64,000 nt of DNA from Chrysomallon squamiferum (GCA_012295275.1 CM022671.1:6324001-6388000); one strand, 5' to 3'; shown: positions 54,772 to 60,550, numbered from the stretch's first letter. Program-made: numbers and translations. The notes: generated by a model from the sequence alone, not told the origin.

Positions 54772-55699
54772 ATGAGAATTGTCCTGCTTCTAGCAGTTGT
54801 CATCGCTGTTGCTGTCACAAACGGTGAAGCTTGGAGATTACGTCGTGTGTGGCGCAGAGTGAAACCTGCCGTTATTAGTACAGCTATCAAACTCGCCATT
54901 GTAGCTATTGGAAAAAGAAGTAATAAAATAAATTTAAGTAGTGAATACAAACAACAACAAATACTGCTATTATAATCAATTACAATTAGTATTAATACTA
55001 CTAATAACAACAACTACTACTACTGCTTTTACAACAATAATTACTACTACTGCAACTACCGTTGAAACAACAACTAGTATTACTACTACCCCTACAAAAG
55101 TAATAAATCGTTTTAATTTTGTAAAATCTTGTATAGCAAGTTCTGGATACGATTTGCAAATGACATCAATAAAATGCAAAATCGAAGACTATAGGGATCT
55201 ACATGCCGTGCATACTTAATTACATTTAAAAAATAAACAGTATCACAGTAGTTATTTTATTATTATTATTATTATTTTTTATTATTATTATTATTATTAT
55301 TTTTTTTTTTGGAGGTGTGGATGAAGTTGATGTTAACAATGACGGTGTGATAGGCAAAGACGAAATCGAGGCTATTCTAAGTAGTCGAGATGCAGACGAA
55401 CTTCTGGAGTTTGCTGATCGTGATGGTGAAGATTTTTATTTTTATTTTTTTATTTTTTTCAGTTTAATTTAGTTTAGTTTGTTTGTTTGTGTGCACACAC
55501 ACACACACACACAAACACACACACACACACACAACACACACACACACACACACACACACACGTATTTATTTAACTTGAAAATGTTTGATGGATACATTTA
55601 ATAATTTCTCTAACTTTGTTTACTAATTTACGTGTAGCTGACGAGATTGTCACCAAGGAAGAACTGCAGCAAATCTTCGATGAATTCAAACATCAGTAG
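54772..55699 (+). CDS. Secreted precursor 1: signal peptide + cationic amphipathic 26-mer + GKR + two EF-hands (106 aa)
   Basis: Exons 54772-54919, 55315-55425, 55638-55699: MRIVLLLAVVIAVAVTNGEA / WRLRRVWRRVKPAVISTAIKLAIVAI / GKR / SVDEVDVNNDGVIGKDEIEAILSSRDADELLEFADRDADEIVTKEELQQIFDEFKHQ*; 3'UTR exon from ~55990 with AATAAA. Confidence 0.85.
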
Positions 55700-56682
55700 T
55701 TGTAAGTTTGTAATAAAATACACGTTCGAATATTAATTAAATATACGTTCAAAAAATATACGTTCAAATCTTAATCATATATTTATATTAATAAGTATGG
55801 AAACTGTTTAATTGGAAAAAATCAGTTAAAATTGCTTTAGATCTTTGTATGTGTACAAATATGAATTTTAATGTCAAGTTTTGTAACCCATGCGCTAAAT
55901 ATATTTATGAATTTGTGTTAAATATTTAAATGAGATTACAAACAGAAGTCTGAACATAGAAAGTGAATATATTGTTTTTTTTGTTTCAGACTCATCCAAG
56001 TTTAACCAGAAAAATGTCCAAACAGAAGTCCTAGAGGTGACCACATTGAAAACAATAAATATGAAACCTCTCTAAAATCAGTTTTATGTTTTAATTTAAT
56101 TTAATTTAATTTAATTTAATTTAATTTATTTTTTTTTTTATTTTATTTTTTTTATTTATTATTATTATTATTATTATTATTATTTTATCAATACTGATGT
56201 AAGTTAACAGTCCATAATCACATGTGTGAGTACGGCTGTTTTGGTACGTTTTTATGTAACAGAAATACAAAAGATGATATATTTTTAAATAAACAAATAA
56301 ACAAACAAACAAATACATAAGGAAATAAATAAAGAAATAAACAAAGAAATACATAAGAAAATAAACAAACAAACACACAAACGAGGTGATTTGAAGAGGA
56401 GAAAACTTTTGTAGGAACTGAATTGAATTTGATCAGTGTCCAAACTAATCTGATATATATCAAATTTTGTTACAAAATCGGTCATTTGTTATTACTACTA
56501 CTACTTCTATTCATTTTATTATTATTATTATTATTATTATTATTATGGAAGTGCACGTATATTGAACCTTTAGCATTTGTCAGCTTCTGATTGCTTCAAA
56601 GGTATTTTGCTACAAGTGTGTGACATCGCGATCAGATCGAGAATTTTGTGATATTAAAAGTAGCGGAAGGCCAACCGACGCG

Positions 56683-56880
56683 AAAACAATGACGGGGGTG
56701 ATCTACAAAGACGAAATCGAGGCTATTCTAAACAGTCGACAAGCAGACGAACTTCTTGAATTTGCTGATCGTGATGGCAAAGATTTATTTTTTTAGACTC
56801 ACCCAAGTTTGACCAGCACAATGTCCAAACAGAAGACAGAGATGTGAACACAATAAAGATGAAACCTCTCTAAAATATGT
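56683..56880 (+). pseudogene. Relic of a peptide/EF-hand gene: frameshifted exon 2 fused to the 3'UTR exon
   Basis: aacaatgacgggggtgatctacaaagacgaaatcgaggct...gctgatcgtgatg followed by GC instead of GT, then agactcacccaag...aataaa; no exon 1 or exon 3. Confidence 0.75.
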
Positions 56881-58201
56881 TTTTCATTTTATTTTGTTTT
56901 ATTCATTCATTCATTCATTCATTCATTCATTCATTTATGTATTTTATGAATACTGATGTCGGTTAATAAAGTTAACAGTTGATAAATATCACACATGTGT
57001 CAGTATGGATGTTGGTGCGTTTGTGTAACAGAAGTTAATTTTCAAGTGGAGTAGTTAAAAAATATTTTGAATAAACAAACAAAAACATAAGAAAATAAAC
57101 AAATAAACAACCAACCAGCCAAACAAACAAGCAATTAAATAAACAAACAAAACTTTGTAATAATAAAACATACGAGGTGACATGAAGACGAGAAGATTTG
57201 TGTAGAAATTAACTTGAATTTGATCAAACTAATCTGAAAAAGTAAACAGAACAGTTTAAACAAGTTCAGCTAAGAAACTGGTTTAAGAGAGAATCATTTC
57301 ACAACTTAGATTTACCAGTCAGTTTACCAAGAACTATAACCGAAGACATTCCGTATAATTTGACAAATTGTCTTTGCACGTAGATTTGAGAAAGGCCAAA
57401 CGTTTATGTAGAAGTCACCAAAATAATCAAATCGAGTTTATCGTAACTTGATAAACACACTGAGGTTATTAGACATTGCTTTTAGTGGACGAAAACTAAA
57501 AATCGTAAATTTTGTTGATAGAATCTGACGTTTTGATACAAAATTTTAATGTATTTAATATGTTATTGGGAAAAGTGATGCAGAAATCCTGTTTCCACCT
57601 TATTTTGGAAAAACTGTCACCAAGGTGACAAATGGAGCTGAAATGTGTACGTATAATCACCCTTCTTTTCTCTCTCTGCTTTAACATCACCATCCTTTAC
57701 TTCTTTTCTTGTTTCAAAGATGCTGGCTTTTTGTAGCATTTGTGGACGCATTTTTACAAATATAGTACACAGACACGTTTGTATATTTTATATGAACTGT
57801 CGTGTGAAGAGAAGAATATGTCCCATTGTCTTTCATGCACCAGTCGTGTTGCCATGGTTCAGATGGGGGGAAAAGGACAATGACAATCACGTCCATTGGA
57901 GAGGGTCAATTCTGTTAACTGTGCACATCAGGCGAGAAAATTCCATTTCAGTTTGTATATCATCACTACTCGCCGATCTTTACTTTAATATATCAAATTA
58001 TATTACAAAATGATGTTCATTTGTTACTACTAATACTAATACTTCTATTAATTTCATAATTATTGTTATTATTATTATTATTATTATTATTATTATCATT
58101 ATTATTATTATTATTATTATTATTATTATTATTATTATTATTATTATTATTATTATTATTATTTTATCAGGTGATGAAATTTTTTTAACAAATGTAAACT
58201 T

Positions 58202-58299
58202 CTCAGATCAAACCAGAATACCAGCCTGGGATTGACTACGACAGAAAAAATCGTTACGCAGAAAGGAAACGATGGAAGGAGGATTATCAACCTGAACAG
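58202..58299 (+). pseudogene. Duplicated fragment of the MRPL18 last exon (start of tandem unit 2)
   Basis: Near-identical to 53438-53535 ([28 protein letters not shown]); stop TAG changed to CAG. Confidence 0.85.
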
Positions 58300-59529
58300 C
58301 AGAAACTGAGATTTAATTTTAGTGTGAATATCAAACATGATTAATTTACTGTAATCAAGTAAATTTCTGTCAGCTTTATTCATGAAACAAACACTTGTGT
58401 GATTAACAGTGTAAAATTTGAGTAAAAACTTATATTTTTTACAATAACTAAAAGCAGTACCAGATTTATGCATAAACTTGACAAATTACAGCTTAGGTCC
58501 TCAATCTGCAGAAATAAAGTCTTGTTCCTAGTTATCTCCCCTCTGAAAAAACGTTCATTGCTGGTTTTATTGGCTGTCATCTTGTGGTGTTTACAGATTG
58601 TTGATGATGTTCCACTTAACACAACAAGCAGAACTGAGTAATAATGTAAAAAAACAATTGTGTGTGTGTGTGAATAAAGAAGGAAATAAAACCCCATTAA
58701 CACCACAAGTTGAGCTATCTGTTACTTCCTGGATTAATATTCAGTGATGCTAAAAGATAAACACTTCATGTCTGCACCATGCCTGAAATATAAATCTGTC
58801 CAGGACATAACAGATAATTAACACAACATTAATTAAACAAATTATGATGATAAGATGAGATAATAATGTAATTACAAGCAGTGCATGAATCCAGTGTGTG
58901 AAATCCTGGTGAAGTTTAAAATAAATAGAGTCACTTAGCTACATTTTAAACCATTTACTGTTGTAAGACTGCAGAGAAAACAACAATGTAAGTACAACTA
59001 TTTTTTATATATTAAACTTATGATTATGGTCTATTTTATTATTTATTTATTTTAATATTTGTGTTCGCTGTCACTGCTATGTTCAGCCATTCTATCTTTA
59101 AGTAATTCAAAAGTTTATTTATTTATTTGTCTGTTTATTCCTTTAATGATTACTGTGTAATTCATGAAATTTACGGATGCTATTTATTATGAATAATAAT
59201 AATAATAATGAAAAATTAGTAATTATAGAGATTAATTAAAATAACAAAATCTGGCTTACTTGTTAAAAAAAAAAAAAAAAAAAAAAAAAAAAAAAAAAAA
59301 TGTTAAGGTGAAGATTTCTTTCCTTCCGAGTTAGCTCCCTCTATGAAGTACGTTATGATTTCCTCCCATTTTCATATTCCATTACAGTCATCAACTTACG
59401 ACCAGGTTACGTTCCGACTAAATGGGCGTAAGTTGGATATCTGTTATTTGTATGCACGTAATCACGTTATCTCAACCTTAAGTAATCCATGTTTTTTTTA
59501 GTAAACCCTTTAATTGGTTTAAATCAAAG

Positions 59530-60550
59530 ATGAGAGTCGTGCTGATTCTAGCAGTTGTCGTTGCTGTAGCTGTCACAAACAGTGATGCTAGTTGGGGACG
59601 TCGTGCATGGCGCAGAGCCAAACCTTACATTATTGAAGCAGCCAAGCAGATCCTCTTTAAAATTATTGGAAAAAGAAGTAATAAACAAGTTTTAAGTAGT
59701 GAATATAAACTCAGACTACAAAAATAAATACTACTACAACAACAGCTACTACTAGTAGAATAATAAAAATAACAAAGTTGTGGATACGATTTGCAAATGA
59801 CACCAGTAAAATGCTCATTCGAAGACTAGGCACCTACATGACGTGCATATTAAATTACATTTTAAAAAGATAACAAACAGCATCGCAGTATTTATTTATT
59901 TATTTATTTATTATTATTATTATTTATTTTTTTTTTTTTTATTATTATTATTTTTTCATTTTTTATTTAGTATTAATATTATTATTATTATTATTTTTTA
60001 TTATTATTATTATTATTATTATTATTATTATTATTATTATTATTATTATTATTTTTGTTTTTTGTTTTGTAGGTGTGAATGAAATTGATGCGAACAATGA
60101 CGGTGTGATAGACAAAGACGAAATCGAGGCTATTCTAAGTAGCCGAGAAGCAGACGAACTTCTGGAGTTTGCTGATCGTGATGGTAAAGATTTATTTTTT
60201 AATTTTTATTTTTAATTTTTTTTTTTTTTTTTTTTTTTTTTCAGTTAGTTAGTTTGTGTGTTTTTTGTTTTTTAAAATATTTGTTTGTTTATGTATATAT
60301 GTGTACACTCGTACATGGACATGGATTAATTTTAAAGTACTTCCAAGTACAGTACATACACAAACAAACACACGCACAGAGAGACACACACACACAAATA
60401 TATATATATATATATATATCTCAATTTTAAAATGTTTGGTGGATACATTTAGTAATTTCTCTAATTTTGTTTACTAATTTACATGTAGCTGACGAGATTG
60501 TCACCAAGGAAGAATTGCAGCAAATCTTCGATGAAATCAAACATCAGTAG
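59530..60550 (+). CDS. Secreted precursor 2: signal peptide + cationic amphipathic 26-mer + GKR + two EF-hands (106 aa)
   Basis: Exons 59530-59677, 60073-60183, 60489-60550: MRVVLILAVVVAVAVTNSDA / SWGRRAWRRAKPYIIEAAKQILFKII / GKR / SVNEIDANNDGVIDKDEIEAILSSREADELLEFADRDADEIVTKEELQQIFDEIKHQ*; exon sizes 148/111/62 as in copy 1. Confidence 0.88.

Follow-up and report, generated by a model that had tools for sequence, protein, structure and literature searches.

We analysed a stretch of 64,000 nucleotides (nt) from Chrysomallon squamiferum (GCA_012295275.1 CM022671.1:6324001-6388000), hereafter the window, in which positions are counted from the first letter. At 54772-60550, two gene copies, g1 and g2, lie in tandem on the + strand, and each model of 321 nt encodes 106 amino acids (aa) plus a stop codon. 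The order of parts is the same in both precursors: a 20-aa signal-like segment is followed by a 26-mer, the tripeptide G-K-R, and a 57-aa acidic EF-hand piece. These gene models bear out the numbers of a first-pass annotation, made from the sequence alone, which had described two 106-aa precursors with a 20-aa signal, Cys-free 26-mers, G-KR and a 57-aa acidic domain. The observation of two precursor genes is confirmed and is more than chance; among 494 ATG-started frames of at least 35 aa in the window, only g1 and g2 combine a signal-like segment with G[KR]R, by a filter that was picked post hoc and has no formal null. The two genes are a real, small gene family that was apparently not previously described.

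Gene models of g1 and g2

The coding exons of g1 occupy 54772-54919, 55315-55425 and 55638-55699 (+), and those of g2 occupy 59530-59677, 60073-60183 and 60489-60550 (+). All four coding introns run from GT to AG, and both introns of each gene are in phase 1. The first lies after coding nt 148, directly behind G-K-R, in 2/2 genes, and the second splits EF loop 2 at its position 4 in both. From these splice signals we infer that exon 1 is joined to the EF-hand exons in g1 as well as in g2. An intron in the 3' untranslated region (3'UTR) 2 nt past the stop, a non-coding exon 4, and an AATAAA signal are common to the two copies. In both genes, a strong acceptor-like site also lies early in intron 2 (55462, 60244; 37 and 61 nt from the donor), and if it were used, the protein would end inside EF loop 2. 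The GC content is 40-45% in exons as compared to 18-29% in introns, and g1 and g2 are 94% identical in exon 2, 97% in exon 3, and about 86% in aligned intron columns. The parts of the two genes are listed here by coordinates, strand and content.

54772..54831, +, g1 signal-peptide-like segment of 20 aa, with a hydrophobic core and small residues at -3/-1
54832..54909, +, g1 26-mer, the predicted mature peptide: Cys-free, net charge +7, Pro12, RR at precursor 24-25 and 28-29
54910..54918, +, g1 G-K-R cleavage/amidation signal, with the phase-1 intron donor at 54920
55315..55425, +, g1 exon 2, with EF loop 1 (55329-55364), two helices and the start of loop 2; Pfam EF-hand_1 at E 2.2e-4, under the curated cut-off; strict pattern matched
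55638..55701, +, g1 exon 3, with the remainder of loop 2, the last helix and the stop at 55697-55699; 97% identical to g2 exon 3
55990..56072, +, g1 non-coding exon 4 (3'UTR), AATAAA at 56054
59530..59589, +, g2 signal-peptide-like segment of 20 aa
59590..59667, +, g2 26-mer, the predicted mature peptide: Cys-free, net charge +6, Pro12, RR as in g1
59668..59676, +, g2 G-K-R signal, with the phase-1 donor at 59678
60073..60183, +, g2 exon 2, with EF loop 1 (60087-60122) and loop 2 from 60174; Pfam EF-hand_5 at E 7.7e-6, 25.6 bits against a cut-off of 25.9
60489..60552, +, g2 exon 3, with the remainder of loop 2 (to 60514), the last helix and the stop at 60548-60550
60803..60885, +, g2 non-coding exon 4, AATAAA at 60867

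Upstream of the coding part, a T-tract with an AG stands 26-28 nt before the ATG of both genes (54745, 59501), which suggests a 5'UTR intron and a non-coding first exon, like those of myticalin genes. A donor for this putative intron was sought upstream of g1 and g2, and none was convincing.

The cationic peptide, the acidic piece and their divergence

The 26-mer carries a net charge of +7 in g1 (seven K/R, no D/E) and +6 in g2 (seven K/R, one E), with isoelectric points (pI) of 12.0 and 11.6, and neither precursor contains a Cys. Its N-terminal half is rich in Arg and Trp, a Lys-Pro is invariant, and the C-terminal half is hydrophobic, with one Pro in each peptide. For exon 1, AlphaFold2 (AF2) predicts a single helix over residues 24-47, at a predicted local distance difference test score (pLDDT) of 69. 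At 24-25 and 28-29 of the precursor, an RR pair is conserved in both peptides, one of the pairs in an R-x-x-R context. In the ESM Atlas, the nearest clusters to exon 1 are precursors of pleurocidin, cecropin and ranatuerin at 0.77-0.78, a lead only given the tool's mark of 0.9. Run against Pfam with E up to 1, the exon-1 products of g1 and g2 matched no family of antimicrobial peptides (AMPs), only DUF7740 (0.14) and the Myticin-prepro signal (0.27).

The 57-aa piece holds 19 D/E and 5 K/R, for a net charge of -14 in both genes, and it has no Met. The EF-hand loops named in the first-pass annotation stand in part: loop 1 follows the strict EF-hand pattern in 2/2 genes, and the first loop as quoted there belongs to g2 only, g1 differing from it at two loop positions. 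Loop 2 follows the pattern of ligand positions only, with Glu rather than the canonical Gly at position 6. The spacing from loop to loop is 29, and loop 1 follows K-R after only five residues. Canonical EF-hand loops are about 36 residues apart, and the 57-aa piece falls outside the description of a calmodulin-like lobe, that is, two canonical loops with full flanking helices at that distance. For g2 exon 2 alone (37 aa), AF2 predicts helices at 15-23 and 25-36, and none ahead of loop 1 (pLDDT 71). A sequence search of the PDB with exon 2 returned EF-hand proteins, 53 sequences at E up to 0.1, and the Pfam EF-hand models match this exon just below their cut-offs (g2 best, E 7.7e-6). Calmodulin genes have a phase-1 intron at position 4 of a loop, a point for which a literature search gave no confirming paper; if it holds, it would hint at a calmodulin-family lobe as the origin of the EF-hand piece.

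Divergence between the two copies is distributed very unevenly. The nt differences between g1 and g2 number 30/78 in the 26-mer, 9/60 in the signal, 0/9 in G-K-R, 9/171 in the EF domain, and 100/728 in introns, the last counted over 728 aligned columns with gaps excluded. The 26-mer has diverged more than the introns (Fisher p 4e-7), the EF domain has diverged less (p 0.0016), and the signal is close to the introns (p 0.85). The proportion of nonsynonymous differences (pN) is 0.415 in the 26-mer as compared to 0.044 in the EF domain, and within the 26-mer it is 0.25 in the N-terminal half and 0.55 in the C-terminal half. The paralogous 26-mers have 10/26 residues in common, and they differ most in the C-terminal half, beside the predicted amide. 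A fast peptide beside a slow EF domain is what one would expect of genes for defence peptides and toxins.

Database searches and genomic surroundings

Homologue searches were made with single exons of 36-49 aa against collections that did not yield this animal's spliced protein, so a blank means that there is no close annotated relative, not a true absence. Exon 1 against longer proteins gave 0/47 candidates, a two-sequence exon-1 profile at near lengths gave 0/60, and exon 2 against longer proteins gave 1/48, an unrelated 1839-aa multi-EF protein. HMMER with exon 2 against 1.84 billion representatives yielded 726 matches at E up to 0.001, and the best 150 of them are all at least 116 aa long, with 2 to 10 matched stretches. 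When 151 proteins were filtered for a signal, G[KR]R and an EF-hand, one was flagged, of 144 aa and with four stretches, and it lacks a cationic-hydrophobic peptide; this negative is weak because it covers the best 150 of 726 matches and because multi-EF proteins crowd the list.

An exact look-up of the unspliced read-through products gave 0/2, and exon 1 had no match in the PDB by sequence or, as a model, by Foldseek. Three short motifs had no match in 4/5 supplementary files of PMC11871041. Four RNA runs of other organisms have no bearing on expression: three match intron repeats only, and one matches nothing. In DNA runs of one organism, up to 0.49 of the sampled words of g2 occur, and the best of these runs may come from the source sample. 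The metagenome scan gave 2/573 stretches, both of them bacterial EF proteins of the HvfA type (L001 2134-2187, L002 1478-1525); these are exported precursors in which EGKCG motifs accompany an EF-hand pair, and we rejected them as unrelated to g1 and g2. Full-text searches, judged by titles, abstract openings and excerpts, found no paper in which a linear, cationic, amidated peptide is paired with a pro-domain of the EF-hand type; the coverage mostly leaves out subscription journals, so that an unpublished or unindexed account is possible. The EF-hand passages in PMC5673964, PMC7889660, PMC11359391, PMC5549309 and PMC6584072 contain no such precursor.

The window is animal genomic DNA, with AT-rich, microsatellite-rich introns and GC-richer exons. 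The two genes belong to a tandem array. At the head of every unit stands duplicated sequence from a gene further upstream, namely its last exon with the 3' region (53388-53535, with partial copies at 58196 and 62851). Three more features belong to this array.

56685..56870, +, gene fragment between g1 and g2: part of an exon-2 copy, whose frame is broken close to its start and whose donor is not GT, runs on into a copy of exon 4; exons 1 and 3 are missing nearby
61476-61558, extra copy of g2 exon 4, 99% identical
62468..64000, +, start of a third tandem unit (its upstream block), 83% identical to 57817-59244; the window ends just before the expected exon 1 site

The upstream gene itself is a multi-exon gene (37475-53535, +) whose last exon and 3' region have been co-duplicated with the peptide-gene units. 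It contains the motifs DxDxT and DDD, which are suggestive of a HAD-like phosphatase; Pfam found no family on four of its single exons. Further upstream, two tandem genes similar to class C G-protein-coupled receptors (GPCRs) occupy 2600-34000 (-), and in each of them several exons for Venus-flytrap (ANF receptor) domains apparently come before a single seven-transmembrane (7TM) exon (21385-22530, 4033-5226). There are 17 long minus-strand frames in this region, and Pfam assigned 7tm_3 to one exon and ANF_receptor to one; a literature search on multi-flytrap receptors found no paper by title. An exon at 2651-3679 (-) contains a 48-nt (16-aa) repeat in 11 copies; it probably codes for the cytoplasmic tail of the GPCR that lies downstream. 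A 633-nt inverted repeat pair at 48882-49505 and 50768-51397 (95% identity), with related pieces at 38700-40250, is probably a non-autonomous DNA transposon. Rfam had no match in 36000-64000. A kappaB-like 10-mer at 54464-54473 (-), about 300 nt before g1, was dropped as evidence because nine such 10-mers occur in the window and none stands before g2.

Interpretation and comparison with known precursors

We favour, at a probability of about 0.62, the reading that the peptides of g1 and g2 make up a new host-defence family, amidated and active on membranes. In this reading, the layout of the genes is like that of myticalins, and the pro-domain, an EF-hand piece as in mytimycins, likely neutralises and packages the peptide. 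The proposal, already made in the first-pass annotation, that the precursor is secreted and yields a cationic, amidated peptide of the defence type gains support from the layout, the invariant G-K-R (9/9 nt), the acceleration confined to the 26-mer, and the myticalin-like arrangement of exons. The usual processing route leads from signal peptidase to a convertase at K-R, carboxypeptidase trimming, and amidation at Gly by PAM. The precursor would enter the regulated secretory pathway, where its signal would be removed and the chain cut at K-R, trimmed and amidated, and such steps have been described for myticalins (PMC5577615, in part). The 26-mer would be the end product, and the freed peptide would presumably act on microbial membranes. 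The EF-hand pair may serve as a pro-domain that offsets the charge of the peptide and aids its packaging; anionic prodomains neutralise mature peptides elsewhere (PMC10608444, in part).

The idea that the EF-hand pair is a Ca2+-switchable sheath is not supported so far. The piece is a single lobe: its first helix is truncated, its loops are 29 apart, loop 2 departs from the canonical pattern, and Met is absent. Binding of the calmodulin type depends on Ca2+, and both the secretory lumen and the body fluids of marine animals are rich in it, so secretion would not free the peptide by a calmodulin-type route. In a snail precursor, an EF-hand region reportedly stands beside neuropeptides that are not lytic, so such a module does not go with lytic cargo alone. 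More plausibly, the pro-domain would be Ca2+-loaded all along the secretory route and would grip the peptide in cis through charge and hydrophobic contact, and release might come from proteolysis, dilution and competition from anionic microbial surfaces rather than from a Ca2+ switch. Because the gap from K-R to loop 1 is five residues, the peptide tail may complete the EF domain in the precursor, its hydrophobic residues possibly replacing the missing first helix until cleavage. A bolder version, in which the EF-hand pair would be an on-board chaperone, is unlikely; here the tail would supply the first helix, the degenerate loop 2 would be a sensor of millimolar Ca2+, and the peptide would stay sheathed in the granule and be freed only at seawater-level Ca2+ or pH. 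Such a switch would run opposite to the calmodulin-like one, the peptide coming off when a low-affinity loop 2 takes up Ca2+. If it were true, the EF-hand pro-domains of these genes, mytimycin and HCS2 would be repeatedly recruited, Ca2+-controlled peptide carriers, in parallel to the BRICHOS pro-domains of polychaete AMPs.

Several results weigh against the host-defence reading. The hydrophobic moment of the peptides is not higher than that of shuffles in 6/6 tests (p 0.07-0.24), which makes the design of the 26-mer block-like and not demonstrably amphipathic. A cut at the internal RR could give a 17-mer of net +2 in place of the 26-mer, which leaves it uncertain where the product begins. The protein searches with exons 1 and 2 found no homologue with a tested function. 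In the 26-mer, pN (0.415) exceeds the synonymous proportion (pS, 0.284) without significance (p 0.41), and positive selection is therefore not shown. Gene conversion of the flanks could yield the same pattern of divergence, and with a single paralogue pair, selection and patchy gene conversion are inseparable. The EF domain, as the most conserved part, may itself be a product.

Among other explanations, a precursor of a signalling peptide (neuropeptide, hormone or pheromone) of the HCS2/pleurin design, whose amidated peptide would act on a receptor rather than on membranes, has little probability, though slightly more than the rest. G-K-R amidation is a standard neuropeptide signal, and rapid change would suit a pheromone of species recognition. 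Neuropeptides usually keep their receptor motif beside the amide. The two peptides share only 10/26 residues, and the C-terminal half, by the amide, is their most divergent part (pN 0.55). Each precursor also carries a single copy of the peptide, with a net charge of +6 or +7 and no PRX-amide end of the kind tabulated in PMC7749107 (in part).

It is slightly less probable that the EF-hand pair is the working product, a secreted acidic Ca2+-binding protein of the shell or tube matrix or of mucus, and that the cationic segment is a removable pro-peptide. The constraint on the EF domain (9/171 nt, below introns) would agree with this, and EF-hand domains occur in all lophotrochozoan shell proteomes of PMC13425148 and in three snail hard-part proteomes of PMC11871041 (both in part). 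However, the invariant Gly before K-R serves the upstream peptide alone, a discarded pro-peptide should not outpace introns in divergence, and cleavage leaves a five-residue lead-in to loop 1, a poor start for a free EF-hand protein. On a par with it, we consider doubtful that the same processing yields a cytolytic secretion against animals, defensive or predatory, perhaps as the 17-mer after an internal RR cut. Of the residues in the 17-mers, 65-71% are hydrophobic, venoms commonly contain short, amidated, hydrophobic helices that come with acidic pro-pieces, and toxins fit tandem duplication and fast change equally well; in contrast, the Arg/Trp-rich N-terminal half is better conserved (pN 0.25 vs 0.55), which fits its retention in the product. 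Least probable is a wrong or dead gene model, with exon 1 unspliced to the EF exons, an end inside loop 2, or unexpressed copies: the joining of exons is read from splice signals, intron 2 has its alternative acceptor in both genes, and a broken fragment lies between them, but both copies have open frames, matching phases, a completed loop 2, a 3'UTR intron and a polyA signal, and exons 2 and 3 are conserved above introns.

The host-defence reading would bear on more than this locus. Cys-free AMPs are scarce in molluscs (PMC12294457, in part). According to the excerpt of PMC8004829, no function is known for the EF-hand pro-piece of mytimycin, and a second, apparently independent family with such a pro-domain and a short linear peptide would be a simple system for asking what EF-hand pro-domains do; the question is easy to test because both parts can be obtained by synthesis or simple expression. 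Moreover, the conserved EF exons could be a handle for gathering hypervariable peptides that similarity searches miss.

Compared with known systems, g1 and g2 resemble cecropin, pleurocidin, piscidin, styelin and clavanin in the basic N-terminal half, the hydrophobic C-terminal half and the predicted amide. Acidic C-terminal pro-pieces also occur in fish and tunicate AMP precursors. There is no profile match to the cecropin, pleurocidin or styelin families (Pfam, E up to 1), and we did not find an EF-hand pro-domain reported for them. The layout that had been called cecropin-type is thus an analogy only, given the lack of a Pfam cecropin match and a hydrophobic moment not above shuffles.

A second likeness is to the HCS2/pleurin precursor of Helix, which Bogdanov et al. 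reportedly described in 1998, going by the title, as a secretory precursor with neuropeptides and an EF-hand region; by that title, g1 and g2 share the combination of peptide and EF-hand region in one secretory precursor. They differ in that pleurins are one to four short PRX-amide neuropeptides of the nervous system, whereas each of our precursors has a single long cationic 26-mer with a hydrophobic end (PMC7749107, in part).

Mytimycin, as the first-pass annotation had pointed out correctly, has its EF-hand pro-piece behind a Cys-rich peptide. This mussel antifungal precursor shares with g1 and g2 a peptide, antimicrobial in mytimycin and predicted to be so here, a dibasic site, and an anionic C-terminal EF-hand-pair pro-piece that is more conserved than the peptide (PMC8004829, in part). 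As far as this excerpt goes, the mature peptide of mytimycin contains about 12 Cys and lacks a Gly for amidation, whereas g1 and g2 have no Cys. In its row A1, counted by eye, there are 17 residues before loop 1 and a spacing of 35, as compared to 5 and 29 in our genes, and its loop 2 keeps Gly6, where g1 and g2 have Glu6. The EF-hand pro-domain was likely recruited independently of mytimycins.

The gene layout is closest to that of myticalins, in which one exon encodes the signal, the mature peptide and the dibasic site and is followed by a phase-1 intron and an anionic extension (PMC5577615, in part). Myticalins also have conserved flanks around a hypervariable core with pI above 11, clustered genes, and pseudogenes (PMC5577615, PMC12294457, both in part). 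To the extent of these accounts, g1 and g2 have the same parts as myticalins and modiocalins, namely a signal, a Cys-free cationic peptide (23-42 aa and pI above 11 in the mussel families), a Gly-dibasic amidation site and an anionic extension, and the phase-1 intron just past the dibasic site is present in 2/2 genes. However, the extension in the mussel families is of low complexity and lies in one last exon, whereas here it is an EF-hand pair across two exons, and their peptides are mostly Pro/Arg-rich, whereas those of g1 and g2 have one Pro and a hydrophobic C-terminal half. The signal consensus of myticalins is not matched by g1 and g2 in a by-eye comparison, and no relationship at the sequence level was seen. 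The novelty of g1 and g2 would be that they join, in one precursor, features known separately from two mussel antimicrobial families.

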